Virus record (IMG/VR): IMGVR_UViG_3300020172_001601
Coordinates: 64,198-128,197 of that record
DNA length: 64,000 nucleotides
Direction: 5' to 3' (one strand)
Origin: a virus
Shown here one piece after another: positions 2,571-59,926 of this stretch (within the stretch, counting starts at the first letter, position 1; each line of letters opens with the position of its first letter). A model generated the notes under the pieces. It made no database searches. It was not told the DNA's origin and worked only from the letters and a program-made list of their open reading frames with translations. Made by a program: the position numbers and the translations under genes.

Positions 2571-3341
2571 ATGGCAACAAAGAAGGCGGCGAAGGACGAA
2601 TCACCCGTCGCCAAGAAGCCGCTCAAGATTAAGGTGATTGGAACGGGCGGCATCGGCCTTTGCCTGCTTCCTTCGCTCTGTCGATACCTCAACTATAACG
2701 GCGAGAAATATCCCGCCGTGGAAGTGAGCCTGATCGACGGCGATACGTTCGAGGAACGCAATCGTGAGCGACAGGACTTTGTTGAGACGGGGCCGAAGGC
2801 GTCCATGACCGCTGCCGAATATCGGGGCAAATTCCCACGACTGATGTTTTGGGACCATCCGGTATACGTCGCCGATCACAACGTCATTCAGTTGATTCGG
2901 GAGAACGATATTGTTCTTCTCTGTGTGGATAATCACAAGACCCGCAAGCTGATTAGCGACCGGGCCGAAGAACTGAAGAATGTTACCGTCATCAGTGGCG
3001 GCAACGATTGGACTGATGGAAACGTGTTGCTTCATATTCGACGGGATGAGAAGAACCTGACGCCACCTTTGGCGAGCAAGTTTCACCCGGAGATTTTGAA
3101 TCCGACCGACGAGAACCCTGCCGACGTGGAACAGAAGGCAGAAGGTTGTGCAGAGTTGGCTGTTGCTGCACCGCAACTGCTGATTACGAACAACTACATT
3201 GCCGCCAACATGCTGGCGGGACTGTACAACGTGATTGACGAAGGGCGATACGAGAAGGTTCTCGCCGCTCCGCACAATTTCGCAGAGGTCTACTGTGATC
3301 TCTCCGTGATGAAGTCCATCCCACGAGAACGCAAGGTGTAA
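2571..3341 (+). CDS. E1-like adenylyltransferase (ThiF/MoeB/ubiquitin-activating family)
   Basis: Rossmann motif KVIGTGGIG; DGDTFEERNRERQ and CVDNHKTRK resemble ThiF/MoeB adenylation motifs; alternative GTG start at 2526. Confidence 0.7.
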   Translation: MATKKAAKDESPVAKKPLKIKVIGTGGIGLCLLPSLCRYLNYNGEKYPAVEVSLIDGDTFEERNRERQDFVETGPKASMTAAEYRGKFPRLMFWDHPVYVADHNVIQLIRENDIVLLCVDNHKTRKLISDRAEELKNVTVISGGNDWTDGNVLLHIRRDEKNLTPPLASKFHPEILNPTDENPADVEQKAEGCAELAVAAPQLLITNNYIAANMLAGLYNVIDEGRYEKVLAAPHNFAEVYCDLSVMKSIPRERKV

Positions 3342-6127: not shown

Positions 6128-6218
6128 GGCGAGGTAGCTCAGTCTGTTAGAGCATTGTGAATAGGGGCCGAAAGGTCTACTAACGCAAGGGTCGGTGGTT
6201 AAAATCCATCCCTCGCCA
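6128..6218 (+). tRNA. oversized tRNA-like gene (91 nt); anticodon stem TTGTG/CGCAA encloses a 24-nt loop with GAAA-tetraloop hairpin
   Basis: Acceptor GGCGAGG/CCTCGCC, D-arm GCTC..GAGC, T-arm GGTGG-TTAAAAT-CCATC. Confidence 0.4.
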
Positions 6219-6295
6219 CTTTGTAAGTCAAATGCCGTCAGGACTACATTTGCAAAACGTAACGTCTTGGCAACCATTTGTTGACTTACATTTAT

Positions 6296-6410
6296 GGACT
6301 GTTAGCTCAGTGGCCTGTTTACAGGGAAGCCGGTTGTATTAGCCGAGAAATCGGATGATACAAACACTTCAGAGCGTCGTAGCAATACGAAGGTCGATGG
6401 TTCGATTCCA
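6296..6410 (+). tRNA. oversized tRNA-like gene (115 nt) with ~60-nt D-loop insertion and a 4-nt loop where the anticodon loop should be
   Basis: Acceptor GGACTGT/ACGGTCC, T-arm GATGG-TTCGATT-CCATC; internal GAAA/GCAA tetraloop hairpins. Confidence 0.4.
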
Positions 6411-6424
6411 TCACGGTCCACTAT

Positions 6425-6602
6425 GGGGAAGTAGTAGAATCCAACTCAGAGCAGTTGGAGTGGAAAAGCAGTTTAGGCTCACGGAGCAATCCGCATGTTG
6501 ATGGGGAAACCCATAAACATGAACCAAGAGGGGCGACCCTCGAACAACTGCCGAGAATACCGGGGTAACTCGGTGATGCTGGTTCGAGTCCAGCCTTCCC
6601 CA
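6425..6602 (+). tRNA. tRNA-like termini (GGGGAAG...CTTCCCC plus T-arm) separated by 178 nt; may be one interrupted gene or composite
   Basis: 5' acceptor/D-like start and 3' CTGG-TTCGAGT-CCAG T-arm with complementary acceptor strand. Confidence 0.25.
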
Positions 6603-6606
6603 CTAC

Positions 6607-6717
6607 GCAGCGGTAGCTCAAATAGAACCGTTTTACAGGTAGTGGCAACATTACTTGCATTTGGTAGAGCCTTCCGTAAGGAAGAGGTTGAAGGTGAGAG
6701 TCCTTCCCGCTGCACCA
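6607..6717 (+). tRNA. oversized tRNA-like gene (110 nt) with ~38-nt D-loop insertion and encoded CCA
   Basis: Acceptor GCAGCGG/CCGCTGC, D-stem GCTC/GAGC enclosing insert, T-arm GAAGG-TGAGAGT-CCTTC, ACCA end. Confidence 0.35.
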
Positions 6718-6880
6718 TGCTGGGGTAGTAGAATTGGAATGTATGACTAGGAAGCGACATGAGGTTGTAATGACCTTTAATTCGCCCCCATGACCATACA
6801 GAGAACGCTACAGTAATGTGGAAATGCAGGTTCGAGTCCTGCCCCCGGCACTTAACATTCAACACACAGGAGATTGCACG

Positions 6881-9956: not shown

Positions 9957-10043
9957 ATTCCCGAACGGGAATAGAACGATCCCGAACGGGAATAATTTGA
10001 TGTTTTTGGCAACAGAATAGTCAAATTATTCCCGAACGGGAAT
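9957..10043. repeat. three copies of palindromic motif ATTCCCGAACGGGAAT within 90 bp between tRNA genes
   Basis: Copies at about 9957-9972, 9979-9993 (imperfect) and 10028-10043. Confidence 0.7.
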
Positions 10044-10047
10044 GAAA

Positions 10048-10121
10048 CGGGGTGTGGGCTAAAGGCGAGCCGCCTGCTTTGGGAGCAGGACAACGAGTGA
10101 GTTCGATTCTCACCACCCCGA
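10048..10121 (+). tRNA. tRNA-Pro (TGG)
   Basis: Acceptor CGGGGTG/CACCCCG; anticodon arm CCTGC-TTTGGGA-GCAGG. Confidence 0.75.
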
Positions 10122-15801: not shown

Positions 15802-15926
15802 GCCGGGTTAGCTCAATGGTAGAGCGCCAAAAACTACTCTCAGCAATATTTGGGCTTCGGCCATGCTCGTTGGGAATACATTCCACTCGGAGGAGGAGGT
15901 CGTTGGTCCGATTCCAACACCCGGCA
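15802..15926 (+). ncRNA. tRNA-like RNA with ~50-nt structured insert at the anticodon-arm position; paralog of 41936-42058
   Basis: Perfect acceptor GCCGGGT/ACCCGGC, canonical D-arm, T-arm GTTGG-TCCGATT-CCAAC; insert has ATATTTGGGCTTCGGCCATGC (UUCG hairpin) and ATGCTCGTTGGGAATACATT hairpin. Confidence 0.5.
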
Positions 15927-16985: not shown

Positions 16986-16998
16986 CTTGTAGAGACAA

Positions 16999-17018
16999 AT
17001 GCTAGTTGGGTTTACATT
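16999..17018 (+). repeat. copy of motif ATGCTAGTTGGGTTTACATT in 3' trailer of tRNA-Pro(CGG)
   Basis: Homologous to 15863-15882, 17182-17202, 42000-42018; region 16990-17092 bounded by inverted repeat AGAGACAA/TTGTCTCT. Confidence 0.55.
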
Positions 17019-17094
17019 GGATGCTAAGGCTCGGACCTAAAAGCTACCGCAAGGTGGCTGCAAAACAACTCAGCGCAATTTGTTGTCTCTATAT

Positions 17095-17169: not shown

Positions 17170-17181
17170 CTTTTGTGACAA

Positions 17182-17202
17182 ATGCTCGTTTGGGATTACA
17201 TT
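17182..17202 (+). repeat. copy of motif ATGCTCGTTTGGGATTACATT in 3' trailer of tRNA-Pro(TGG)
   Basis: Region 17172-17300 bounded by inverted repeat TTTGTGACAA/TTGTCACAAA and contains a T-arm-like TTGG-TTCGACT-CCAA. Confidence 0.55.
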
Positions 17203-17327
17203 TGGTTCGACTCCAAGGGGCGGCTCTTTCAAAAACATGCCGCCCAACCAGCACAGGGCAACCTGGGGCTGGGGTCCGATCTCAGCACAATTTGTTGTCA
17301 CAAAATACACTTAAAAGAAAGATTGCT

Positions 17328-24499: not shown

Positions 24500-24567
24500 G
24501 CCCCTGGTGATGGACACAGCAGATCGTTCTAAGGTCAGCGTTGAGGGTTCGATTCCTTCCGGGGGCG
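24500..24567 (+). tRNA. tRNA, anticodon unresolved (loop region GTTCTAAGG; possibly TCT)
   Basis: Acceptor GCCCCTG/CGGGGGC; T-arm GAGGG-TTCGATT-CCTTC. Confidence 0.5.
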
Positions 24568-24697
24568 CTTGGGTCAAATGCCATGATGGGAGTACATTCT
24601 GTTAAAATGACCCCTCTCATCGAATAATTTGTTGACCCATTTTTTAGAAATTGTGCCTACCATTGGCACTTACTCAAGCTAAGGGTACGGGCGTGTA

Positions 24698-36821: not shown

Positions 36822-36924
36822 GGTCGGGTAACTCAGCGGCAGAGTCATCAGTGAATCCGGGTGGTTTTATAGTTGCCATTGCGGAAAGCTGATGAGGTCG
36901 CAGGTTCGAGTCCTGCCCCGGCCA
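36822..36924 (+). tRNA. tRNA (possibly Phe, TGAA in loop) with ~30-nt insertion in the anticodon loop (103 nt)
   Basis: Acceptor GGTCGGG/CCCGGCC; D-arm ACTC..GAGT; anticodon stem CATCA/TGATG enclosing GTGAA-[TCCGGG...GCGGA]-AAGC; T-arm GCAGG-TTCGAGT-CCTGC. Confidence 0.5.
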
Positions 36925-36943
36925 CTTGTTATAATGGAGTGAT

Positions 36944-37025
36944 GGGGGTGAACCCAAATGGTTGCGGGAACCGCCTTATAAGCGGCTTACAGTCAGATAA
37001 ACTGAGTATACAAGGTTCGATTCCT
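36944..37025 (+). tRNA. type-II-like tRNA (3-bp D-stem, 24-nt variable arm) with anticodon TAT by position
   Basis: Acceptor GGGGGTG/CACCCCT; anticodon arm CCGC-CTTATAA-GCGG; T-arm CAAGG-TTCGATT-CCTTG. Confidence 0.5.
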
Positions 37026-37331
37026 TGCACCCCTACTCAAAGTTGCAATGGGCAAGAACAACAAATACCATAAATTCCCTCCCCGCAAGCAGGTTCCTGT
37101 CGGCGGGGTTTGTCTTTTGTGTCAATGCAATAGACAAGTGCGAATGGCAGCACGACCCTTCGTTAAGGGCAAGTCGATTTCTCATGCCCTTGGTTTTCCG
37201 GCTGCGATGCCTTTGCTTTCTCCCGGAATGATATTCAAAGGCGTCAATAACTTGACAGGTGAAGAAGAATCATTCAAAGTACAATGTGTATTGATTTTGA
37301 ATCCAGAACGTAGTTCAGTAGAAAGAATAAA

Positions 37332-38240
37332 ATGAACATCACACGCATTGCTCCGTCGCCGACCGGCGATATGCACATTGGCACTGCCAGAACCGCATAT
37401 TTCAACTGGCTCGCAGCACGGGCCAGCGGTGGTAAGTTCATTCTTCGGGTGGACGACACCGATCAGAAGCGAAACGATCCAGCCTATACAGAAGTCATTC
37501 TGTCCACAATGAAGTGGCTAGGTTTGGACTACGATGAGATCGTCTTCCAGAGTTCCAGATTCGACGTATACAAGGCCGCAGCGGGCTTGTTGATCCATGA
37601 AGGCTGGGCCGTTCCAAAAGATGGAGCCACGGTTTTTAACTTGAAGAAGGACCATGTTTTTCCTTCTCATTGGAAGGACGAAATCAAGGGCGACATCAAG
37701 ATCAGCGATGATGACATATCCCATATGGATGGGATGGTTCTCATTAAGTCTGATGGGAGTCCATCTTATAACTTTTGTTCGATTGTTGATGATTTGCACA
37801 TGGGGGTCAACCTAATCATCCGTGGAGTGGATCATATAACAAACACAGCAAAGCAGGTGATGCTTTGGGATGTCCTCAATAGCGGACAGACGATACCAAG
37901 GTTTGCCCACCTGGGTCTTATTTGCATTGATGGAAAGCCTATGTCCAAAAGAGACGGGGCATCGAGCATGTTGAATTACATGAACGCCGGATATGATTCC
38001 GACGCCATGTTGAATTTTCTTGCACGCCTTGGTTGGGGGCCAACAAAGGACGACAAGTCCACAACCCTATTGCCGAGAGACAAGATGCTTGAAATGTTTC
38101 TAACTTCGGGTAAGATGAGGAGTCAGCCAGCTAGTTTCGATTCTGGCAAATTGGAGTCGTTCGACCGCAAGTACAAGGCCCGTAAGGGGACTTGGCGAAC
38201 GGGCGACAAGTTGATTTCTGACACTAACAAAGAGGCATAG
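37332..38240 (+). CDS. glutamyl-tRNA synthetase catalytic core lacking the anticodon-binding domain (GluQRS-like architecture)
   Basis: APSPTGDMHIGTARTAYFNWL (HIGH region), RVDDTDQKRN, KPMSKRDG (KMSKS); 302 aa, ends where GluRS anticodon-binding domain would begin. Confidence 0.7.
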   Translation: MNITRIAPSPTGDMHIGTARTAYFNWLAARASGGKFILRVDDTDQKRNDPAYTEVILSTMKWLGLDYDEIVFQSSRFDVYKAAAGLLIHEGWAVPKDGATVFNLKKDHVFPSHWKDEIKGDIKISDDDISHMDGMVLIKSDGSPSYNFCSIVDDLHMGVNLIIRGVDHITNTAKQVMLWDVLNSGQTIPRFAHLGLICIDGKPMSKRDGASSMLNYMNAGYDSDAMLNFLARLGWGPTKDDKSTTLLPRDKMLEMFLTSGKMRSQPASFDSGKLESFDRKYKARKGTWRTGDKLISDTNKEA

Positions 38241-40090: not shown

Positions 40091-40134
40091 ATTTGTTGAC
40101 TGGATGTGGGGTGCGAACCTCACCATGACATAGT

Positions 40135-41880
40135 GTGTCTGGTCAAATAACTCGAAAGGCAATGGTGATTACGATGGCTAACAAGAATCTATTCAAGTCT
40201 GAGCGTGGCTCAATTGTTCCAGCAACGGACGTTCTCAACGAAGCTGGTGGTGTTGCATACAAGATGAGTGCAAAGCAGGCCCTTGCGCAGTACGTCTGCA
40301 CTGGCTGCTTGAACGGCACCTACTACACGTCTGCCAAGACGCAACTGGACACTGTTCGTCAGTTGCTTACTGAAGTCGAGCCTGAGTTCCTTGGTCAGTT
40401 GGCTGTGTACTCGCACGAAAAGTCCTTCATGAAGGACTTGCCTGCTCTGTTGGTCGCATTCCTCGCATCCGACAAGGGTGCTGGTGGTGGTCCAACTACG
40501 GCTACGCAGGAGCGAAAGCTGAAGACGCTCCGTAAGGTTTTCCATCGTGTCATCGACAGCGGCAACATGCTGCGCAACTTTGTGCAGATGATCCGTTCGG
40601 CAGCATTCGGTCGCAAGTCATTCGGTGAAGTGCCTCGCAAGCTGATTCGTGACTGGTTCGAGAATAAGTCTCCGGCTGGTATTTTCTTCCAGAGCATTGG
40701 CAATAGCCCATCCCTGGCAGATATTATCAAGCTGACCAAGCCGAAGCCGAACACGCCTGAAAAGGCGGCTGTATTGGCGTATCTGCTTGGTGCAGAAACC
40801 GTTGACGGCGAAGATGGCAAGTTGCTTGTTCGCAAGTATCTTGACCGTGCCGACAAGCAGGTGAAGGTTGCGTACTCGCAGCCTTACGACAACCTGCCGG
40901 AAATCATTCGTGAATACGAAGCGTGGAAGAAGGACAAGAGCCTCCCGGTTCCTGCCATCAACTTCCGCTTCCTGGACAACGAGAAGCTGTCAACTGCTCA
41001 GTGGGCAGATATTGCTTCCAAGGCAAACTGGCTTACGACCCTGAAGAACCTCAACGCATATGCCGACCACGGCGTATTCGGCGTTGAAGGCATGACTGAC
41101 ATGATCGCCGCACGTCTCAGCAATGCTGATGAAGTGCGTAAGGTTCGGGTATTCCCATACCAGATCATGATGGCCTACCTCGCAACCGATACGGAAGCGA
41201 AAGTACCGCCCAAGGTCCGTAACGCCATTCAGGATGCTATGGAAGTGGCATGTGAAAACGTACCAGCGTTGGGAAAGGTTAAGTTCTTCCCGGACGTGTC
41301 TGGTTCGATGAGGAGCGCTGCTATTACGGGCGACCGTGGTTCGGCGACTTCTAAGGTTCGGTGTGTTGACGTGGCTGCTCTGTTCGCAGTGGCAATGCTT
41401 CGTCGCAACCCGGAAGCGGAAGTAATTCCGTTCGAGCAGACGGTTCGTGAACTTACACTGAACCCTCGTGACAGCATCATGACCAACGCTACTCGCCTCG
41501 CAGCGATTGGCGGTGGTGGAACCAACTGTTCGGCCCCACTTGCTTTGCTCAACGCAAAGAAGGATTGGTCGGCAGACGTGTTGGTGTATATTTCGGACTA
41601 TGAGTCCTGGGTGGATAGCACTGGCTACCACGCTGGTAATGGCAACGGTACAGCACTGCTCAATGAGTGGGTGAAGTACAAGAGCCATAACAAGAATGCC
41701 AAGCTGATTTGCATCGACTTGACCCCTCGTGCAAACCATCAGGTCAAGGAACGTGATGATATTCTCCAGGTCGGTGGATTCTCGGACAACGTATTCAACG
41801 TGATCGCAAGGTTCGTTGAAGGCGGCTGGTCGAAGGATTTTTGGGTCAAGGAGATTGAAAGCGTTCAACTGGATACTTAA
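40135..41880 (+). CDS. rsr: Ro60 ortholog (Rsr): TROVE domain plus vWA domain with MIDAS
   Basis: NEAGGVAY..LAQYVCTGCLNGTYY matches Ro60 N..GG...L..F..G..GTYY; VRVFPYQIMMAY; MIDAS DVSGSM; GGGGTNCSAPL. Confidence 0.85.
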   Translation: MSGQITRKAMVITMANKNLFKSERGSIVPATDVLNEAGGVAYKMSAKQALAQYVCTGCLNGTYYTSAKTQLDTVRQLLTEVEPEFLGQLAVYSHEKSFMKDLPALLVAFLASDKGAGGGPTTATQERKLKTLRKVFHRVIDSGNMLRNFVQMIRSAAFGRKSFGEVPRKLIRDWFENKSPAGIFFQSIGNSPSLADIIKLTKPKPNTPEKAAVLAYLLGAETVDGEDGKLLVRKYLDRADKQVKVAYSQPYDNLPEIIREYEAWKKDKSLPVPAINFRFLDNEKLSTAQWADIASKANWLTTLKNLNAYADHGVFGVEGMTDMIAARLSNADEVRKVRVFPYQIMMAYLATDTEAKVPPKVRNAIQDAMEVACENVPALGKVKFFPDVSGSMRSAAITGDRGSATSKVRCVDVAALFAVAMLRRNPEAEVIPFEQTVRELTLNPRDSIMTNATRLAAIGGGGTNCSAPLALLNAKKDWSADVLVYISDYESWVDSTGYHAGNGNGTALLNEWVKYKSHNKNAKLICIDLTPRANHQVKERDDILQVGGFSDNVFNVIARFVEGGWSKDFWVKEIESVQLDT

Positions 41881-41905
41881 AATATATCCAGCTAGGTTTG
41901 GCTGG

Positions 41906-41937
41906 GGACCGGGTTGCCGGTCCTCGGCCTGCTTTTT
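41906..41937 (+). terminator. hairpin plus T-run after Ro60 gene
   Basis: GGACCGG-GTTG-CCGGTCC then TCGGCCTGCTTTTT. Confidence 0.45.
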
Positions 41938-42058
41938 GGCGGTAGCTCAATGGTAGAGCAAAAGTAAAAACAAATCTAAGCGATATTTGGGCTTCGGCCA
42001 TGCAGTTTGGATTACATTATCCAACTTTAGGTTGTGTGTTCGATTCACACCCCGCCAG
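41936..42058 (+). ncRNA. tRNA-like RNA with ~55-nt structured insert, about 55 nt downstream of Ro60 stop (Y-RNA-like candidate; alternatively an intron-bearing tRNA)
   Basis: Acceptor TTGGCGG/CCGCCAG, canonical D-arm GCTC-AATGGTA-GAGC, T-arm GTGTG-TTCGATT-CACAC; helix AAAGT/ACTTT encloses insert with ATATTTGGGCTTCGGCCATGC and ATGCAGTTTGGATTACATT hairpin, homologous to 15802-15926. Confidence 0.5.
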
Positions 42059-42205
42059 CTTCCAGCAGACTTTTATTTTCAGGTGATATATGGCTAAAGG
42101 CAATAACTCTCAGAAGAATGACAAGAAAGACAAAAAGCAACCCAAGAACGCTAAGAAGGCAGCAGCAAATCAGCCCGCTGTTATTGGCAAGTCTAAGGGT
42201 AAGTA

Positions 42206-42511
42206 ATGCCGAAAAGGACAAAACATCCTGACGGCTCTTTGTGTCTTGAAGGAATTCGCAGCATTCGTCGCAACAAGCAAGTCTGTTGCGACGAATTTTA
42301 CTTCCGCACTGCAACTTGTGTTTACGACATTAGGTATCAGTGGTATAATCGCCACAAGACTTGGGGCATTCCTGTTTGCGATGGCGGGAGTAGCTTCATT
42401 GCCATAACCTTCTGTCCACACTGCGGAGCGAAATGTGATCCCCGTCAAAGAAGACAAACTCCGACCAGTCCTGGCCACAATGACAGGGACCAGAGCCGAA
42501 GGCTTGCTTAG
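42206..42511 (+). CDS. small zinc-ribbon protein
   Basis: C..C...CPHCGAKC. Confidence 0.35.
   Translation: MPKRTKHPDGSLCLEGIRSIRRNKQVCCDEFYFRTATCVYDIRYQWYNRHKTWGIPVCDGGSSFIAITFCPHCGAKCDPRQRRQTPTSPGHNDRDQSRRLA
42321..42349 (+). promoter_or_regulatory. sigma70-type promoter TTTACG-N17-TGGTATAAT
   Basis: Conserved architecture; inside previous small ORF, upstream of 42435. Confidence 0.45.
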
Positions 42512-44474: not shown

Positions 44475-47036
44475 ATGGGTTCGTTCAAAGATACGCTGCA
44501 ACTCCCGAAAACCGATATGCCCATCGCTGCCAACTTACCGGCCAGCGAACCCGCCGTTTACGCATCCTGGGGCAACGTCTATTCCCGCTTGAAGCGAGAC
44601 GGGAAGAACCCTTTCATTCTTCATGATGGCCCGCCGTATGCTAACGGCGATATTCATATCGGCCATGCTCTCAATAAAATCCTCAAAGACTTCGTTGTGA
44701 AGTTCCAATACTTCAACGGGCGAGCCGTCGAGTTTGTCCCCGGCTGGGACTGTCACGGACTTCCGATTGAATCGAAGGTTTATTCCATCATCCGAGTTGG
44801 CGGCGGCAATCCCAGCAAAGAGCCGTTGGAATTAGTCCAACGCATGTGTCGGAAATATGCCGGTGAGCAAATTGCTAAACAAAAAGAGCAATTTCAAACC
44901 CTGGGCGTAATCGCCGATTGGGAAAACCACTACGAGACGATGAGTCCGTGGTTTGAAAACATGATCTCTCAGCGACTTGCTGAATTGCGGGATCATGGAT
45001 ATTTGGTTCGCCGCAAGAAGCCTGTCTATTGGTCTTGGTCTTATGGCACTGCACTGGCTGAGGCAGAAGTCGAATATCGTGACCGAGTAGATAATTCGGT
45101 GTATGTCGTATTCAAAACTGATAAGTTCCCTTGGGGGCTTTTGGTTTGGACCACAACGCCGTGGACACTTCCGGCCAACGTCGCCGTGGCATTGAACCCC
45201 AAGATGAAATATCTTGCTGTTCGTGTGCGAGATTACAATCTCCCCGTGCTAGTAGCTGCCGATCTTGTCAAGACCTTGACAGATAAAGGAATCATTGAGC
45301 ATGTCTTTGACCTTTATAGTGCGCAAGGCGACGAGTTCAATGGTTGGCAATTTCAACATCCTGTTTATCCCGACCAAACCGTGCCGTGCGTAATGGCCGA
45401 CTTTGTGTCCGCTGATAGCGGCACTGGTTGTGTACATATCGCCCCTGGTCATGGAGAAGAAGACTATCGAGTAGGGTTGGCGAATAATCTTCCGGTCGTC
45501 ATGCCTGTTGACGGAACGGGCAGATACACCGAGGGCAAATACGAAGGTCAATGGATTTTTGATGAAACTGACGGTTCGTATAAAGAATACAACTCGAATC
45601 CCAATATCCTTGCTGATTTAAGGGAGCGTGGTCTATTGGTTCATACTGAGAAGATCACTCACAGCTATCCCTATTGCAGCCGATCTGGAACGCCGGTCAT
45701 CTTCCGTGCTACTGAACAGTGGTTCTTGGACTTGGACAAGATTCGCAATCTGATCTTGGGGCCGATGACTGCTATTGAGAATGTGCAGTTCTATCCAGAG
45801 CATTCCAAGAACCGTATGGTTCCGATGCTGGAGAACCGCCCTGACTGGTGCATCAGTCGCCAGCGAGTATGGGGCGTGCCGATCTTTGAAGGACCGGACA
45901 TTCTTGACGTATGGTTTGATTCAGGATTGACGTGGAACATCCTGGGAGATCGTCAGGCTGACGTTTATCTGGAAGGCAACGATCAGCACCGTGGATGGTT
46001 CCAGAGCAGCCTATGGCTGTCTGTGGCCCTTCAGGGCGTTGCGCCATACAAGAAGGTCATCACGCATGGCTTTGTTGTCGATCAAGACGGCAAAAAGATG
46101 GCTAAGTCCAAGGGCAATGTCGTGTCGCCATTGGAAGTGACTCAAAAGCAGGGAGCAGAAGTGCTTCGCTATTGGGTTGCGAGCATTGACTATACGAAGG
46201 ATGCGCAGTGCAGCCCGGAGATCATGAAGCGTGCTGCCGAGGGCCACAAGAAACTTCGTAATACTTTCAGATTCCTAGTGGCAAATATGCCCAAGGAATC
46301 TCCGTATAAGAACGACCAGAATATGGTTTTCCTGCCGGTCAATCGTTGGATTTACGAAAAGACTCAGAAGGTCTTTTCTGAAGTCCATCAGTTGTTTGCC
46401 GACAACCTGTTCCATGCTGGTCTGCAAAAGTTGACGGAGTATATCAATACTGATTTGAGCGGTATTTACATGAACGCCGTCAAAGACTGCTTGTATTGTG
46501 ATGCTGTCGATAGTGTGTCCCGAAAGAATGTTGTTCACGTCATGAGTAAAATCCTCAAGGCGATGATGACGCTTGTGGCTCCGTTGTTTACCTACACGGC
46601 GCAGGAAGTGTTCAATTATTGTCCTGAATGGGTGAAGGGTGACGCCAAGGATATTTTCGATCTTCAATACGAAGCATTGCCAGACTTGCCGCCACACTTG
46701 GCTCGGATGGACGAAGCGTATTGGAAAGAGGCGTTGTCCGCATTCCATACTGAGTTCGACAAGATCAAGACCGCAGGCAAGGCTCGTGATACTTTGGAAG
46801 TCGTTATTGAATCGACTTCTGGTGATACGTTCTTTGTCGGGGCTGAAGATTGGTTTGTCGTAAGTCATTGGGCATCACATCCTTCAACCTGTGAGGCCCT
46901 GGGGGAATTCTCGGTGGGCGACAAGGTTTATCGGATTGTCAAGAGTCAGAAGAATAAGTGCGAACGATGCTGGAAACGCAATGCAGAACAGGAGTTATGT
47001 CCTCGCTGTCTCGGTGTGGTGAATCCGCAGGTTTGA
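44475..47036 (+). CDS. ileS: isoleucyl-tRNA synthetase
   Basis: PPYANGDIHIGHALNKILKD (HIGH region), KMAKSKGN (KMSKS), C-terminal zinc finger CERCWKR..CPRC; 853 aa. Confidence 0.9.
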   Translation: MGSFKDTLQLPKTDMPIAANLPASEPAVYASWGNVYSRLKRDGKNPFILHDGPPYANGDIHIGHALNKILKDFVVKFQYFNGRAVEFVPGWDCHGLPIESKVYSIIRVGGGNPSKEPLELVQRMCRKYAGEQIAKQKEQFQTLGVIADWENHYETMSPWFENMISQRLAELRDHGYLVRRKKPVYWSWSYGTALAEAEVEYRDRVDNSVYVVFKTDKFPWGLLVWTTTPWTLPANVAVALNPKMKYLAVRVRDYNLPVLVAADLVKTLTDKGIIEHVFDLYSAQGDEFNGWQFQHPVYPDQTVPCVMADFVSADSGTGCVHIAPGHGEEDYRVGLANNLPVVMPVDGTGRYTEGKYEGQWIFDETDGSYKEYNSNPNILADLRERGLLVHTEKITHSYPYCSRSGTPVIFRATEQWFLDLDKIRNLILGPMTAIENVQFYPEHSKNRMVPMLENRPDWCISRQRVWGVPIFEGPDILDVWFDSGLTWNILGDRQADVYLEGNDQHRGWFQSSLWLSVALQGVAPYKKVITHGFVVDQDGKKMAKSKGNVVSPLEVTQKQGAEVLRYWVASIDYTKDAQCSPEIMKRAAEGHKKLRNTFRFLVANMPKESPYKNDQNMVFLPVNRWIYEKTQKVFSEVHQLFADNLFHAGLQKLTEYINTDLSGIYMNAVKDCLYCDAVDSVSRKNVVHVMSKILKAMMTLVAPLFTYTAQEVFNYCPEWVKGDAKDIFDLQYEALPDLPPHLARMDEAYWKEALSAFHTEFDKIKTAGKARDTLEVVIESTSGDTFFVGAEDWFVVSHWASHPSTCEALGEFSVGDKVYRIVKSQKNKCERCWKRNAEQELCPRCLGVVNPQV

Positions 47037-56581: not shown

Positions 56582-56953
56582 ATGAAGCGTAATCCGATTG
56601 CCAACTACTGTAAGCAACAAGTAGAGGGCTGGGACAAGCTGCCAGAGTTCATGAATTTCGCCCCTCCTGGCGAAGAGAACTTTTGTTGCAGTTTTCTTCG
56701 TCGTGCTGACGGTATTCAAATGTTGGCGTCGGTGAAAGACCTGAATGCCCTTAATACCATCCATGTCTCTTTGGCTCCTATTCGAGATTGCCGCAAAGAC
56801 TGGACAGATGACGAACACAGCGGACACATATTCGATGTGGCCTTTGAAGTGGTTGAATCCTTTTTCCCCGGTCGAAGGTTTGCACGGCAACCTGATGATC
56901 CCCGCAGACCACAAGTGAAGCATTACTTCGCCATCCTGGAGGCCAATGAATGA
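56582..56953 (+). CDS. hypothetical protein
   Basis: 123-aa ORF. Confidence 0.35.
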   Translation: MKRNPIANYCKQQVEGWDKLPEFMNFAPPGEENFCCSFLRRADGIQMLASVKDLNALNTIHVSLAPIRDCRKDWTDDEHSGHIFDVAFEVVESFFPGRRFARQPDDPRRPQVKHYFAILEANE

Positions 56954-58599
56954 ACGAATTCCATATTTCGGAAAAAGACAACAACACCACGTTCGTCACA
57001 ACGGCGATTGATTATCCGAACGCTCTGCCACATATCGGCACAGCATTCGAGAAGATCGGCGCTGACGTATACGCCCGGTTCCGTCGTTTCCAGGGTCGTG
57101 ATGTATATTTCACGATGGGCAACGACGAGAACACTGTGAAGGTTCTCAAAGCAGCAAAAGCCGTAGACAAGCATCCTCAGCCATATGTCGATGAAATGGC
57201 CGATGCGTTTAAGGCTGTGTGGAAAGAACTCAACATTTCCTTTGACGACTTCATTCAGACCAGTGAAGATCGACACCTGTTGGGTGTTCAGAGATTCCTG
57301 CGTGCTGTGAATTCCGCTGGTTATATTGAGAAGCGACCATACAAGGCTTTGTATTGTGAGGGCTGTGAAGAGTTCAAGAGTCCAAATAGCTTGGACTATG
57401 CAAAGCGATGCCCGAACCATACTGGCACACCTTTGGTGGAACGGGAGGAAGAGAATTACTTCTTTCTTCTGTCTGCATTCAAGCAGCGTGTGGCTGATTT
57501 GATTTATCCCACTCCATTCCTCACTGCCTTCCTGAGTATTGAGCCTGAGTCTCGCTACAACGAAGTCACTAAGTTCATCGACACGGAACTGACGGATATT
57601 TCCATCAGTCGCCGTAATGAAGGCTGGGGCATTCCAATTCCGTGGGACGACACCCAAGCCACCTATGTCTGGTTCGACGCTTTGTTGAACTATTTGACTG
57701 TGATTGGTTTTGGGAACGATTGGGAGAAATTCCAAAAGTATTGGCCTGCTGAAGTTCACTTCATTGGCAAGGACATTACTCGGTTCCACTGTGCATTGTT
57801 CCCGGCAATGTGCATGGCCTATAACGAAGGATGTGATAAGCTGGGTGAGCCTCAATACAAGTTGAAGGCTTTTCCTCAGCGTGTATTTGCACACGGCTTC
57901 GTCAATCAAAAGAAGGGAAGTCAGGTTGTCAAGATTTCCAAGAGCGGAGATTCAATCCGACCTGGAGAACTGATTGAGCAGTTCGGGTCGGATGCGTACA
58001 GATACTATTTCTTGTCGAAGTTCAACTACGATACGGACGGTGAATATAGCCTGGACCACTTTAGAGAAGTGTATAACGCCGACCTCGCCAACTCCTTGGG
58101 CAACCTTGTGAGTCGCACCGTAGGAATGTCGTTGCAGTATTTCGACGGGAAGATTCCACCGATGGTCGCAGAAGGCCAGCCTTGGCTTGATGAGAAGACG
58201 GCGTTGGAATACGAGCAATTTATTGTTGATTGTTGTTCGTATCGGCACGCTATTGAATGGACGTGGAAGATCATCTTCAACGCCAACAAGTTGATCGAGA
58301 ATTCAAAGCCGTGGGAATTGGTTAAGTTGCCCGGCAACACCTGTGGTCAGGTGTTGGGCCAACTTGTGGGCAGTCTGAGAATCATCAGTCTGTTGATCCG
58401 ACCGTTCACGCCAGCGGTGGCCGAGAAGATTTACACGACGTTTCAGTGGGCTGAAGGATGGAATGAAGTTGATTGGGAGTTCGTTAAGAAGTTGGCGACG
58501 AACAACTTCCTGGGACTCGAAAACGGTATTGCCATCAACAGGAATGTTTTAGATAATGCTGGAAAGTTTCCGGTGCTTTTTCCGAGAGTCAAATCATGA
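56950..58599 (+). CDS. metS: methionyl-tRNA synthetase
   Basis: PNALPHIGTAFEKIGADVYARFRRFQG (HIGH region), CPNHTGTP zinc knuckle, KISKSGD (KMSKS); 549 aa. Confidence 0.85.
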   Translation: MNEFHISEKDNNTTFVTTAIDYPNALPHIGTAFEKIGADVYARFRRFQGRDVYFTMGNDENTVKVLKAAKAVDKHPQPYVDEMADAFKAVWKELNISFDDFIQTSEDRHLLGVQRFLRAVNSAGYIEKRPYKALYCEGCEEFKSPNSLDYAKRCPNHTGTPLVEREEENYFFLLSAFKQRVADLIYPTPFLTAFLSIEPESRYNEVTKFIDTELTDISISRRNEGWGIPIPWDDTQATYVWFDALLNYLTVIGFGNDWEKFQKYWPAEVHFIGKDITRFHCALFPAMCMAYNEGCDKLGEPQYKLKAFPQRVFAHGFVNQKKGSQVVKISKSGDSIRPGELIEQFGSDAYRYYFLSKFNYDTDGEYSLDHFREVYNADLANSLGNLVSRTVGMSLQYFDGKIPPMVAEGQPWLDEKTALEYEQFIVDCCSYRHAIEWTWKIIFNANKLIENSKPWELVKLPGNTCGQVLGQLVGSLRIISLLIRPFTPAVAEKIYTTFQWAEGWNEVDWEFVKKLATNNFLGLENGIAINRNVLDNAGKFPVLFPRVKS

Positions 58600-58798: not shown

Positions 58799-59563
58799 AT
58801 GAGAATCGCATCCGAATTCCACGACTACTACGATGTAGGCATGGCTGAGGGCCAGGATCAATCCTTGGTCTATCAGCGATACCCTATCGTAGAGGAACGG
58901 GAGCATTACCCGTTCGGTTCAATGTATTCAGGCTACAGCCTGAATGCTCGATCTCTTTACGTCCGCTCATATACCATTGGGTTCTGTGGCAAAATGTACA
59001 AGGTATTGGAACTCAATACCTTGGAGAACGGTTCACGCAACGACAAGGAAGGTCGATCTACTCGTAAGTGGGCATACAACCTGCGGGATGTTGACACTTA
59101 CATCCGTCACCATTATCCTAAGCAATACGCTGACTATTTAGAAAAGAATTGGCGGCGTGGCAATGGCTGGTCTGGCGAACAGCGTCAGCACGCCTTTGAT
59201 TCATTCTTCAATGGTCGTAATCAGTGGGATCGCAAGCCTACCGAAGAGGAATTGAACAAGAATGAAGAGTGGCGTCGAAGCTGGTTCGAGAAGCATCGCA
59301 GTCCTATATTCGTAGCTGAGTATTCTACTGTCGCCAACAAATACGGCGGTAGGATCACATATAACGCCCAACTGAAGCCATTTGAGTTTTATCGGGTGTT
59401 CGATCCTTATCAGGCTTATCAGGAAGTCGCCATGTGGCTTTCTAATCAAGCTGTTCCGATCAAGCCGATTCCAGAGCTTGATGATGTGACAATGGCTGAG
59501 AGCAAAGGTTTCAATAAGTTTAGTTTTAGAAAAGACCCCAGCAGCAAAAAGCGAAAGCACTAG
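58799..59563 (+). CDS. hypothetical protein
   Basis: 254-aa ORF. Confidence 0.45.
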   Translation: MRIASEFHDYYDVGMAEGQDQSLVYQRYPIVEEREHYPFGSMYSGYSLNARSLYVRSYTIGFCGKMYKVLELNTLENGSRNDKEGRSTRKWAYNLRDVDTYIRHHYPKQYADYLEKNWRRGNGWSGEQRQHAFDSFFNGRNQWDRKPTEEELNKNEEWRRSWFEKHRSPIFVAEYSTVANKYGGRITYNAQLKPFEFYRVFDPYQAYQEVAMWLSNQAVPIKPIPELDDVTMAESKGFNKFSFRKDPSSKKRKH

Positions 59564-59639
59564 GGGTTGAACGGTGAGTCCAATCGGTAAGGCGCAAGTC
59601 GCTCCGATGTAACTGAGGGTTCGATTCCCTCCAACTCCA
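59563..59639 (+). tRNA. tRNA-like gene with G3:U70 acceptor, non-canonical core
   Basis: Acceptor GGGGTTG/CAACTCC, T-arm GAGGG-TTCGATT-CCCTC; internal nested hairpins ATCGG..CCGAT. Confidence 0.45.
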
Positions 59640-59641
59640 CT

Positions 59642-59926
59642 ATGAATGAAAAACCAGCAGATGGCGTCCGAGGCTTTTTTCTTTACAGTCCGTTTTCGCA
59701 TCGGCACTTCTTCCGTGTTTACGGAGAAGTCGATCCGACGACGGGCCATAAGACGTTCACTGATTACAAGGTGTGCGCCGAAGATATAGAAGTCACTATT
59801 GAAGCAAATGGGTTGTCCCTGTATGAAGGGGATGAAGATAAAAACCGTCTCGATTGGTCCAGTCGTGTCTTAGGAAGAGATGGCAAAGACCACCTGGATG
59901 TGCGAACACCAAAAAAGGAACAGTAA
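59642..59926 (+). CDS. hypothetical protein
   Basis: 94-aa ORF. Confidence 0.35.
   Translation: MNEKPADGVRGFFLYSPFSHRHFFRVYGEVDPTTGHKTFTDYKVCAEDIEVTIEANGLSLYEGDEDKNRLDWSSRVLGRDGKDHLDVRTPKKEQ

Follow-up and report, generated by a model that had tools for sequence, protein, structure and literature searches.

Gene content of the Ro60 locus

The window, a 64,000-nt stretch of the viral record IMGVR_UViG_3300020172_001601, belongs to a huge phage and contains a Ro60/Rsr gene with a structured leader, a tRNA-like RNA gene behind a terminator-like hairpin, and a small ORF:

40091–40149, + strand: Ro60 mRNA leader element, AAUUUG, a 13-bp hairpin (UUGACUGG...CUGGUCAA) and AUA, then SD-like GAAAGG
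40174–41880, + strand: Ro60/Rsr ortholog, 568 aa, predicted HEAT-repeat ring and vWA domain with MIDAS DVSGSM
41900–41936, + strand: intrinsic-terminator-like hairpin (13 bp) and U run, ending on the first RNA base
41937–42058, + strand: predicted tRNA-order Y RNA, 122 nt, 56 nt 3' of Ro60, with tRNA order and permuted YrlA parts
41974–42017, + strand: module homologous to YrlA's proposed Rsr-binding stem (Pa/S2, internal loop, Pb/S1, UACAU)
42091–42207, + strand: small Lys-rich ORF, 38 aa, MAKGNNSQKNDKK...

The program-made Ro60 ORF spans 40135–41880, and the preliminary description had placed the start at its first codon. We consider ATG 40174 (MANKNLF...) the likely start and disfavor GTG 40135, since SD-like GGTGAT lies 4 nt 5' of the ATG and homologs start alike. 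The identification of the ORF as Ro60 held up well. Pfam vWA_Ro60 matched at 7e-16, the DVSGSM MIDAS was found, Deinococcus radiodurans Rsr (2NVO) aligned end to end (E 7e-18, residues 19–550), and human (9NEN) and Xenopus (1YVP) Ro60 also matched over their full length. The N-terminal HEAT region was divergent yet aligned to 2NVO. Pfam TROVE matched weakly over a single stretch (1.4e-4), and its 21.6 bits did not reach the gathering score of 23. Homologs (n = 6552) included Acidobacteriota TROVE proteins at ~50% identity, and the closest cultured relative was in Myxococcus phage Mx1 (41% identity). Judged by these alignments, the predicted protein is a full-length Ro60/Rsr ortholog.

The terminator-like hairpin reported after Ro60 was confirmed as 13 pairs at 41900–41929 followed by a T run, and relatives carry a hairpin of other sequence at the equivalent place. 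An RNA gene does lie beyond it, as described, although its extent was revised from 123 nt about 55 nt downstream to 122 nt (41937–42058) at 56 nt. The Lys-rich ORF follows the Ro60/RNA pair in relatives, and was also present in a relative without the RNA; a Pfam search of 42091–42207 gave no match.

Architecture and conservation of the predicted tRNA-order Y RNA

The canonical tRNA acceptor, D arm and T arm noted previously were recovered by Rfam tRNA (RF00005), which matched across 41937–42058 at 37.9 bits against a GA of 29; tRNA-like bodies scored 37.9 and 46.4 bits with this model. The acceptor pairs 41937–41942 with 42051–42057 and is followed by discriminator G 42058, and the D arm (41945–41959), variable region (42029–42033) and T arm (42034–42050) complete the body. 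The acceptor stem is open, and relatives have 7 bp plus the discriminator. The window copy is short of one G in the 5' acceptor strand (GGCGG-UAGC, versus GGCGGGUAGC in every relative), a loss that may impair it. The anticodon-stem equivalent, YrlA S3, pairs 41961–41965 with 42024–42028, and the anticodon arm is indeed replaced: AAAGU and ACUUU enclose a 58-nt insert, previously given as about 55 nt.

Within the insert, the 8-bp Pa/S2 helix pairs AUCUAAGC (41974–41981) with GUUUGGAU (42005–42012), followed by the invariant UACAU (42013–42017). An internal loop sets GAUAUUUG (41982–41989) opposite AUGCA (42000–42004), and Pb/S1 is a 3-bp remnant, GGC-UUCG-GCC (41990–41999), with a UUCG tetraloop as its cap. 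The retained elements of the proposed binding stem, S2, the asymmetric loop 5'-(N)AUUUG / AUGC-N-3', YUACAU and the S1 remnant, lie at the end of the anticodon arm. In YrlA, S1 holds most of the proposed Rsr motif; here only 3 bp of it are left. The insert alone folded into this module structure. Single-sequence MFE folds of the full RNA did not recover the comparative structure.

All six helices were ~100% paired among twelve distinct relatives, and every helix had compensatory changes. Taken by itself, the module had 97.7% of cells paired and 12 cells changed on both sides; none of 500 shuffles did as well and slid controls collapsed. The Levitt pair A15:U48 became G15:C48 in one relative (L007). 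The parts of the insert beside the anticodon stem varied in length and sequence, and the interior was invariant or covarying. Two conserved hairpins had been claimed for the insert. GGC-UUCG-GCC is conserved and covaries, but the second (UUGGAU UACAUU AUCCAA) loses its 3' arm in relatives and competes with the conserved AUCUAAGC/GUUUGGAU helix. We also discarded a reading of group C hairpin A as a tRNA-Phe anticodon loop (CUGAAAA), because the loop there has 5 nt in L128 and is a UUCG tetraloop in L145. The 21-nt insert core occurred twice in the window versus 0 expected. A blastn search of the RNA against GenBank phages found no match. A loose 20-nt pattern gave 108 matches in viral contigs, mostly chance and real only on contigs of the Ro60 clade.

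Relationship to YrlA

The covariance-model check proposed in the preliminary description did not favor YrlA. On the 41937–42058 RNA, Rfam YrlA (RF02553) scored 17.1 bits against a GA of 69 and was misaligned onto the terminator and D arm, and at gathering and E-value thresholds it had no match in the window and nine phage Ro60 loci. Rfam YrlA reached GA or more at bacterial Ro60 genes with 46–51% identity to the phage protein. The low score follows from a different topology, with homology itself present: the bacterial core runs S1a(..CGA)-AUGC-N-S2a(..GGAA)-CUACAU ... S2b-N-CUUG-S1b, and the phage module runs S2b-N-AUUUG-S1b-cap-S1a-AUGC-N-S2a(..GGAU)-UACAU.

We built a model (R2) from bacterial YrlA cores only, permuted in silico with a neutral GAAA cap. 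It matched the phage modules at E-values of 6e-4 to 1e-3, with 30.9 bits for L145 (E 5.6e-4) and 29 bits for L013/L128. In the window (128 kb searched) the two window copies ranked first and second, with E-values of 0.16 and 0.31 when taken alone. R2 matches in bacterial loci were dismissed as tandem Y RNA junctions; they contained no capped modules. Re-permuting the phage RNAs gave a parallel result with a bacterial YrlA nhmmer profile. The window copy rose from 14.5 bits in native order to 38.1 bits, and across the phage RNAs native scores of 8–26 bits over half of the profile became 31–40 bits over profile positions 8–96 in 8/9 RNAs, L127 remaining at 14.2 bits. None of 180 shuffled controls exceeded 2.6 bits.

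The RNA shares with YrlA the S2 helix, the AUGC / YUUG internal loop, the YUAY tract, and D and T arms of tRNA type in which the tertiary-pair nucleotides are conserved. It lacks the paired 5' and 3' ends that form YrlA's proposed Ro60-binding stem, and the closed acceptor hairpin. The proposed Rsr motif GNCGAAN0-1G (PMC4201824) was likewise absent, the window copy reading CGGCC-AUG and group C CGGGA-AUG. Because S2, the AUUUG/AUGC loop and YUACAU are homologous, yet the stem is UUCG-capped and the acceptor open, the sequence comparison identifies this predicted RNA as a circularly permuted YrlA whose strands are connected as in a native tRNA. The earlier suggestion of a Y-RNA-like gene is thereby upheld and made more specific by the R2 matches, the gain on re-permutation and the position after Ro60 in relatives.

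Distribution of the RNA across Ro60 loci

The RNA lies directly after an intact Ro60 in the window and in L141, L007, L008 and L011, the other four Ro60s being 72–95% identical. It follows a truncated remnant in L005, where most of Ro60 has been lost, and is 0.8–1.6 kb 3' of Ro60 in L013/L070 and L145 (Ro60 58% identity). Where context was available, every genome found with the RNA family belonged to the Ro60-bearing clade. No such RNA was seen in the 2.5–4 kb flanks of five related Ro60 loci (L009/L010, L012, L143, L144, L014/15), and the module was not found near Ro60 in Mx1, L143, L144, L012, L009, L014 and L001–L004. Because tRNA genes are dense around Ro60, proximity counts for less as an argument.

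Other Y-like RNAs in the window

Five further Y-like genes were found:

6222–6290, + strand: canonical-order Y-RNA-like gene, 69 nt, 4 nt after a tRNA; fold z -3.3
15802–15926, + strand: predicted tRNA-order Y RNA paralog, acceptor GCCGGGU/ACCCGGC, discriminator A; other tRNA-like body
16989–17092, + strand: canonical-order Y-RNA-like gene, 104 nt, between two tRNA-Pro genes; fold z -3.3
17172–17304, + strand: canonical-order Y-RNA-like gene, 133 nt, T-arm-like hairpin, 2 nt after tRNA-Pro; fold z -4.4
24570–24639, + strand: canonical-order Y-RNA-like gene, 70 nt; fold z -2.7

The paralog lies 26 kb away from the Ro60-linked copy inside a tRNA array, 12 nt after tRNA-Glu, with its module at 15837–15881 and an ortholog in L139. 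The four canonical-order Y RNAs abut tRNA genes. The 6222–6290 gene reads S1 UGUAAGUCAA/UUGACUUACA, AUGC-C, S2 GUCAGGA/UCUUGGC, CUACAU and ...AUUUG, and the L139 ortholog of 24570–24639 (10028–10097) has a compensatory change in S1. Canonical-order copies read GNCAA-AUG, one substitution from GNCGAAN0-1G. Rfam YrlA scored 17.2 bits on 16992–17092 and 16.6 bits on 17175–17304. Together, Rfam YrlA and ARAGORN missed six Y-like genes and one leader element in the 64 kb, and since standard searches miss the whole set, Y RNAs in phages may be under-counted. The word ATTTGTTGAC was rejected as a promoter (9 found versus 7 expected, no enrichment); its exact copies are Y RNA 3' ends.

A Y-RNA-like element in the Ro60 leader

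The leader at 40091–40149 has the shape of a capped Y-RNA stem S1 placed between both strands of the conserved internal loop. AUUUG-hairpin-AU(G/A) was found 4–60 nt 5' of the start in 11/14 phage Ro60 loci versus 1/45 bacterial loci, and the stems differ between phage loci and covary. Within a single genome the loose motif was unimpressive (25 found versus 13.5 expected), so the motif is informative only through its position across loci. The stem UUGACUGG/CUGGUCAA could be read as the vertebrate GGUCCGA/UUGACUA helix, but other loci do not keep its sequence, and we did not count this likeness as a feature of the family. A capped copy of S1 and the internal loop beside the Ro60 ribosome-binding site could provide feedback control by the Ro60 protein. 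If the leader binds Ro60, the gene would be autoregulated via a Y-RNA mimic, for which we know of no earlier suggestion.

Proposed function and alternatives

We regard the locus as probably a phage Ro60 ribonucleoprotein module with a YrlA-class, tRNA-order Y RNA to which Ro60 would bind. Ro60 would dock on the insert module, and the L-shaped tRNA-like body could be presented to a tRNA-recognizing partner; the RNA might instead gate the Ro60 ring, a role suggested for YrlA and Yrn1. Having tRNA ends, the RNA could be freed from a read-through or co-transcript by the RNase P and 3'-processing steps that would also serve ~55 neighboring tRNA genes. The genome would also make canonical-order Y RNAs directly abutting tRNA genes. 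During infection the ribonucleoprotein might survey or turn over misfolded tRNA and rRNA, or it might capture an exoribonuclease of the host in the manner of RYPER.

An ordinary tRNA gene with a short intron or insertion, spliced to an aminoacylatable tRNA and next to Ro60 only by virtue of a tRNA-rich region, would also have canonical acceptor, D and T arms. The group A acceptor (U1-A72, G2-C71, G3-C70, G73) resembles tRNA-Gln identity elements, a likeness that also favors this reading, as do several other tRNA-like genes with large insertions in the window and the density of tRNAs at Ro60 loci. It is nevertheless highly improbable. The insert flanks yield neither U33 nor a 7-nt anticodon loop, the loop being 58 nt, a size much below that of group I introns. 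Variable flanks around an invariant, covarying interior are the reverse of an intron pattern, and the interior is collinear with YrlA once permuted. ARAGORN made no tRNA call on the 41937–42058 RNA, and with introns allowed its calls on close orthologs were inconsistent in identity (Asp, Val, Tyr, Tyr, Arg, Glu, Glu, none) and in intron position, a single base change turning Asp into Val. The missing U33 loop and these erratic calls contradict the spliced, normal-size tRNA that had been put forward earlier as the refuting scenario.

It is unlikely, if less so, that the RNA is a tRNA-like ncRNA of YrlA descent whose module now binds another factor, with Ro60 no longer its partner; candidates are the downstream small basic protein, an Hfq/Sm-like protein, to which the AUUUG tract would bind, or an anticodon nuclease of the host, for which the RNA would be a decoy. 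S1, the main proposed Ro60 contact, is almost gone, the 15802 paralog is away from Ro60, one relative keeps the RNA despite losing most of Ro60, and a Lys-rich ORF is conserved beside the Ro60/RNA pair. But the permuted RNAs share the conserved internal loop and S2 with the canonical-order Y RNAs and with the Ro60 leader in the same genomes, the family turned up only in the Ro60-bearing clade where context was available, and the position after Ro60 persists down to 72% Ro60 identity. We also doubt strongly that the window copy is a decaying pseudogene of an otherwise real RNA class. Its 1-nt acceptor deletion (GGCGG, where relatives are all GGCGGG) leaves 6 pairs and shifts the D-stem junction, yet the remainder of the gene is identical to relatives at 95–97%, the 6-bp acceptor with one unpaired C still scores 37.9 bits as a tRNA, a 6-bp stem suffices for Salmonella YrlA (10.1101/312249), and an assembly miscall in the G run is equally likely.

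Beyond a Ro60 module with a YrlA-class RNA, we tentatively raise a possibility that we think does not hold the better odds: an undescribed topology linking tRNA and YrlA, an acceptor-ended tRNA mimic in which a Ro60 docking site replaces the anticodon. RNase P and the CCA-adding enzyme would mature it, aminoacyl-tRNA synthetases or EF-Tu might act on it, and it would tether Ro60 directly to the tRNA-handling or translation machinery, with feedback through the leader. The phage of this reading brings its own tRNAs and synthetases. A tandem YrlA dimer has the tRNA-order form as its middle, which suggests a route between the topologies.

The tRNA-order form bears on the origin of Y RNAs from tRNAs and on the partner of YrlA's tRNA-like domain. 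Its tRNA-like body and its proposed Ro60-binding element appear to be separable modules that can be joined in more than one way; the free acceptor end predicts processing by tRNA enzymes, and the ~44-nt single hairpin offers a compact candidate Ro60 site for binding and structural studies.

Comparison with known systems

Phage Ro60 with Y-like RNAs has already been described (PMC4201824, PMC12135203), and the resemblance of YrlA to a circularly permuted tRNA has been noted (bioRxiv 10.1101/312249). Ro60 plus a Y RNA in a phage was therefore known before, and the tRNA-order form has the same YrlA parts in a different order. YrlA (RF02553), a tRNA-like Y RNA, is found in many bacteria, among them Salmonella and Mycobacterium, and in phages (Chen et al. 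2014, PMC4201824; Wang et al. 2018, 10.1101/312249). Like it, the phage RNA is encoded beside Ro60/Rsr and has a D arm, T arm, variable region and tRNA-type acceptor helix, with S2, the AUGC-N versus N..YUUG loop and YUACAU leading into the anticodon-stem equivalent; ~90 profile positions are collinear once permuted. YrlA pairs its ends into the binding stem and closes its acceptor as a hairpin, whereas the ends of the phage RNA lie in the acceptor and its binding stem is capped by a tetraloop. S1 is 6–10 bp in YrlA versus 3 bp here, and GNCGAA is not kept in the window copy.

Deinococcus radiodurans, with the Rsr-Y RNA-PNPase complex RYPER, similarly encodes a Y RNA, Yrn1, next to its Ro60 ortholog, and Yrn1 resembles tRNA in part. 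Relative to the ends, the T and D elements of Yrn1 come in another order than in YrlA (PMC4201824), and the Rsr-binding stem is formed from the RNA ends, at the acceptor position, with an anticodon-like stem-loop; the phage RNA instead has the module at the anticodon position and a free acceptor end. Thermus phage phiLo (Yrl1/Yrl2), mycobacteriophage, CcrColossus and Bacillus phage G (YrlA) likewise combine a phage Ro60 with neighboring Y-like RNAs. These RNAs have a canonical 5'-3' stem with the CGAA motif and in phiLo lie upstream of Ro60 (PMC12135203), while the present clade has CAA-AUGC/AUUUG-UUG in its canonical-order Y RNAs plus the tRNA-order form. Circularly permuted tRNA genes of red algae and some archaea, as cited in 10.1101/312249, offer a parallel in their two topologies, with ends in the acceptor or the anticodon arm, related by circular permutation. 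They give precursors that are processed to real tRNAs, whereas neither form here has an anticodon loop.

Genomic setting and the Ro60 gene

The window, from a huge-phage-like genome, contains 49 tRNA genes according to ARAGORN, with a few extra from Rfam, and Pfam matches to a gp32-like protein, a GluRS-like catalytic domain, IleRS and a MetRS-like protein. The Ro60/RNA locus is flanked by phage-encoded aminoacyl-tRNA synthetase genes.

37332-38240: GluRS/GlnRS catalytic-domain protein, 302 aa, without an anticodon-binding domain
40091-40149: Ro60 leader element, AAUUUG-[hairpin UUGACUGG...CUGGUCAA]-AUA, just 5′ of the Ro60 ribosome-binding site
40135-41880: Ro60/Rsr ortholog ORF (Pfam and structure alignments)
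41900-41929: 13-bp hairpin with U run, directly after the Ro60 stop codon
41937-42058: tRNA-like RNA (Rfam tRNA, 37.9 bits)
44475-47036: full IleRS
56950-58599: MetRS-like protein

The preliminary assignment of the ORF to Ro60 was borne out by Pfam (vWA_Ro60, 7e-16; TROVE match sub-threshold) and by alignment of its product from end to end, both with human and Xenopus Ro60 and with Rsr of D. radiodurans (2NVO, E 7e-18). The ATG at 40174 was taken as the start on the evidence of homolog N-termini and an SD-like GGTGAT. The 6552 Ro60 homologs included closest relatives on contigs of 0.46-0.67 Mb and bacterial proteins ~50% identical, mostly from Pyrinomonadaceae. The terminator-like hairpin reported 3′ of the stop codon was also recovered. 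Right behind the Ro60/RNA pair is a 38-aa Lys-rich ORF (MAKGNNSQKNDKKDKKQPKN..., 42091-42207) with zero Pfam matches, which is kept in the related loci L005, L007 and L008 and also in L009, a locus without the RNA.

A tRNA-like RNA with a conserved insert

In the Rfam tRNA alignment, 58 nt separate the anticodon-stem strands AAAGU and ACUUU of the RNA at 41937-42058, for which ARAGORN made no default call. A 21-nt insert core occurs twice in the window (41983 and 15846) vs zero expected. Relatives collected from Ro60 homolog loci, and by scanning viral contigs and metagenome contigs once each with a pattern, yielded 12 distinct sequences in four groups (L numbers denote contigs or loci with Ro60 homologs or related RNAs).

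Group A: the window, L141, L007, L008 and L011, directly 3′ of Ro60 72-95% identical; L005, after a truncated Ro60
Group B: window paralog at 15802-15926 with a different tRNA-like body (Rfam tRNA, 46.4 bits; 21-nt core at 15846), and its ortholog L139
Group C: L013/L070 and L145, 0.8-1.6 kb downstream of a 58%-identical Ro60; L128
Group D: L127

The place after Ro60 is thus conserved in group A, with caveats: the paralog sits away from Ro60, the RNA was absent at some related Ro60 loci within the flanks read, and L005 retains it although Ro60 is down to its last ~100 residues. In this 97% relative (IMGVR_UViG_3300032053_005312), the Ro60 remnant (2941-3291) is fused behind an upstream methyltransferase-like ORF with loss of the leader and some 470 codons, and the RNA downstream is intact. 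At 41941-41943 the window RNA reads GGCGG-UAGC vs GGCGGGUAGC in all relatives, which leaves a 6-bp acceptor stem; the missing G could reflect either a true mutation or a homopolymer miscall.

In our manual structural alignment, the acceptor, D, anticodon-proximal, Pa, Pb and T helices had essentially complete pairing, with compensatory changes in every helix. Within the module alone (Pa, Pb and their AUUUG/AUGC internal loop), 97.7% of cells pair and 12 cells changed on both sides; this pairing measure was matched by 0/500 shuffles, and the measures collapsed once partners were slid as a control. The comparative structure has -34.3 kcal/mol vs -37.1 for the MFE; when only the insert is folded, its MFE fold is this comparative structure. 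Two conserved hairpins had been proposed in the insert. GGC-UUCG-GCC is kept, while the second is not: its 3′ arm becomes AUCUCA, AAGUAAAC or GUAAAA, it competes with the conserved helix AUCUAAGC/GUUUGGAT, and the invariant part there is a single-stranded UACAU.

The RNA is not an intron-containing tRNA. The insert flanks yield neither U33 nor a 7-nt loop, and intron-enabled ARAGORN was inconsistent over the 12 sequences (Asp, Asp, Val, Asp, Tyr, Tyr, none, none, Arg, Glu, none, Glu), with a single base difference between L005 and L141 flipping the identity. Variability in the insert is greatest at the would-be anticodon position and its interior is invariant.

Circular permutation of YrlA

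The Rfam YrlA search proposed in the preliminary description gave only 17 bits at 41937-42058, and there was no match to this model in nine phage Ro60 loci. Bacterial loci encoding Ro60 46-51% identical to the phage protein had above-threshold YrlA (13 matches in 20 loci). Element orders, 5′ to 3′, are as follows.

Bacterial YrlA core: S1a(..CGA)-AUGC-N-S2a(..GGAA)-CUACAU-S3a-V-T arm-acceptor hairpin-D arm-S3b-...-S2b(UUUC..)-N4-5-CUUG-S1b(UCG..)
Phage RNA: acceptor 5′-D arm-S3b-A-rich linker-S2b(AUCU..)-N-AUUUG-S1b(3 nt)-UUCG-S1a(3 nt)-AUGC-N-S2a(..GGAU)-UACAU-...-S3a-V-T arm-acceptor 3′

Both hold the same elements in the same cyclic order, with the break shifted from the binding-stem tip to the acceptor loop. 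This reading of the phage RNA as a circular permutation of YrlA is supported by two tests. R2, a covariance model trained only on bacterial sequences (eight cores, permuted in silico and closed by a neutral GAAA cap), matched phage modules in L145 (30.9 bits, E 5.6e-4), L013/L128 (29.0 bits, E 1.4e-3) and L127 (20.4 bits); with filters off, its best two window matches were 41975-42017 (16.9 bits) and 15838-15881 (15.6 bits). Against an nhmmer profile made from ten bacterial YrlAs, phage RNAs in native order scored 8-26 bits over only half of the profile; once re-permuted in silico, 8/9 RNAs tested scored 31-40 bits over positions 8-96 (L127 stayed at 14.2 bits). The window RNA scored 14.5 bits before and 38.1 bits after re-permutation, and none of 180 shuffles exceeded 2.6 bits. 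The earlier reading of a phage Ro60 with a tRNA-mimicking Y RNA is therefore supported, and narrowed to a YrlA permutation. As a caveat, the phage RNA has lost nearly all of S1 and does not retain the GNCGAA motif. Ro60 would bind the module, and the tRNA-like body could recruit a tRNA-recognising factor or gate the Ro60 ring.

R2 also gave 130 matches where adjacent Y RNAs meet in tandem arrays downstream of bacterial rsr, so the central part of a YrlA tandem dimer has exactly the tRNA-order arrangement, and such a dimer is a simple route from one topology to the other. These arrays run to as many as five or six Y RNAs in tandem (L148 3160-3900, L189, L220, L196, L150).

Canonical-order Y-RNA-like genes

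A script searching the window for S1a-AUGC ... YUUG-S1b found four canonical-order Y-RNA-like genes, all missed by Rfam at its thresholds.

6222-6290: canonical-order gene
16989-17092: canonical-order gene (Rfam YrlA, 17.2 bits)
17172-17304: canonical-order gene (Rfam YrlA, 16.6 bits)
24570-24639: canonical-order gene, with a compensatory S1 change in its L139 ortholog

The two Rfam matches are weak, full-length and end exactly as defined by the script. All four have an 8-10-bp S1 ending CAA/UUG, AUGC-N, a 7-9-bp S2, YUACAU and ...AUUUG, and fold as S1-loop-S2 (z -2.7 to -4.4). Their S1a/loop GNCAA-AUG and the proposed Rsr motif GNCGAA(N)G differ by one substitution, for which the opposite strand compensates. 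Each begins 2-4 nt 3′ of a tRNA or tRNA-like gene, and one stops 2 nt short of the next tRNA; this abutment suggests release by tRNA-processing enzymes, which may also mature the tRNA-order RNA.

Other tRNA-like genes, in which the D loop, anticodon arm or variable region holds a large insertion, cluster at 6128-6860 (e.g., 6299-6420, 6424-6600, 6608-6716 and 6719-6850) and 36822-37036; these insertions have no sequence relation to the Y module. Two sub-threshold Rfam matches are probably additional tRNA-like genes.

59563-59642: tmRNA (33 bits vs GA 47)
24500-24566: mascRNA-menRNA (32 bits vs GA 42.5), directly 5′ of the Y RNA at 24570

Ro60 mRNA leader

In sequence, the leader at 40091-40149 resembles a capped S1 between both internal-loop strands. 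AUUUG-hairpin-AU(G/A) lies 4-60 nt upstream of the start in 11/14 phage Ro60 loci with differing stems, even where Ro60 is only 40-46% identical (equivalent positions in L007, L008, L011, L012, L013, L143, L144, L145 and L003). It occurred in one of 45 bacterial Ro60 loci and was absent from 44; bacterial loci instead carry sigma-54-type TGGCAC-N5-TTGC boxes upstream of rsr. The loose motif is common by itself (25 in the window vs 13.5 expected), and the case therefore rests on position and recurrence, from which we infer that Ro60 could autoregulate through feedback at the leader. In the 58-65% Ro60 clade, tRNA-Gly(CCC) and then a ~75-nt elaborated leader hairpin directly precede Ro60.

L012 2332-2500, L013 2327-2500, L145 336-510: elaborated leader region behind tRNA-Gly(CCC)

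Comparison with known systems

YrlA has already been likened to a tRNA that is circularly permuted and closed at its acceptor, and that of M. smegmatis is opened by RNase P and has CCA added (bioRxiv 10.1101/312249; PMC4201824). The phage form differs as the un-permuted counterpart, of which we found no description in the literature. Phage Ro60 with Y-like RNAs is already known (PMC4201824, PMC12135203, PMC7824862); new relative to that system are the topology in tRNA order, the canonical-order Y RNAs that abut tRNA genes, and the element in the Ro60 leader.
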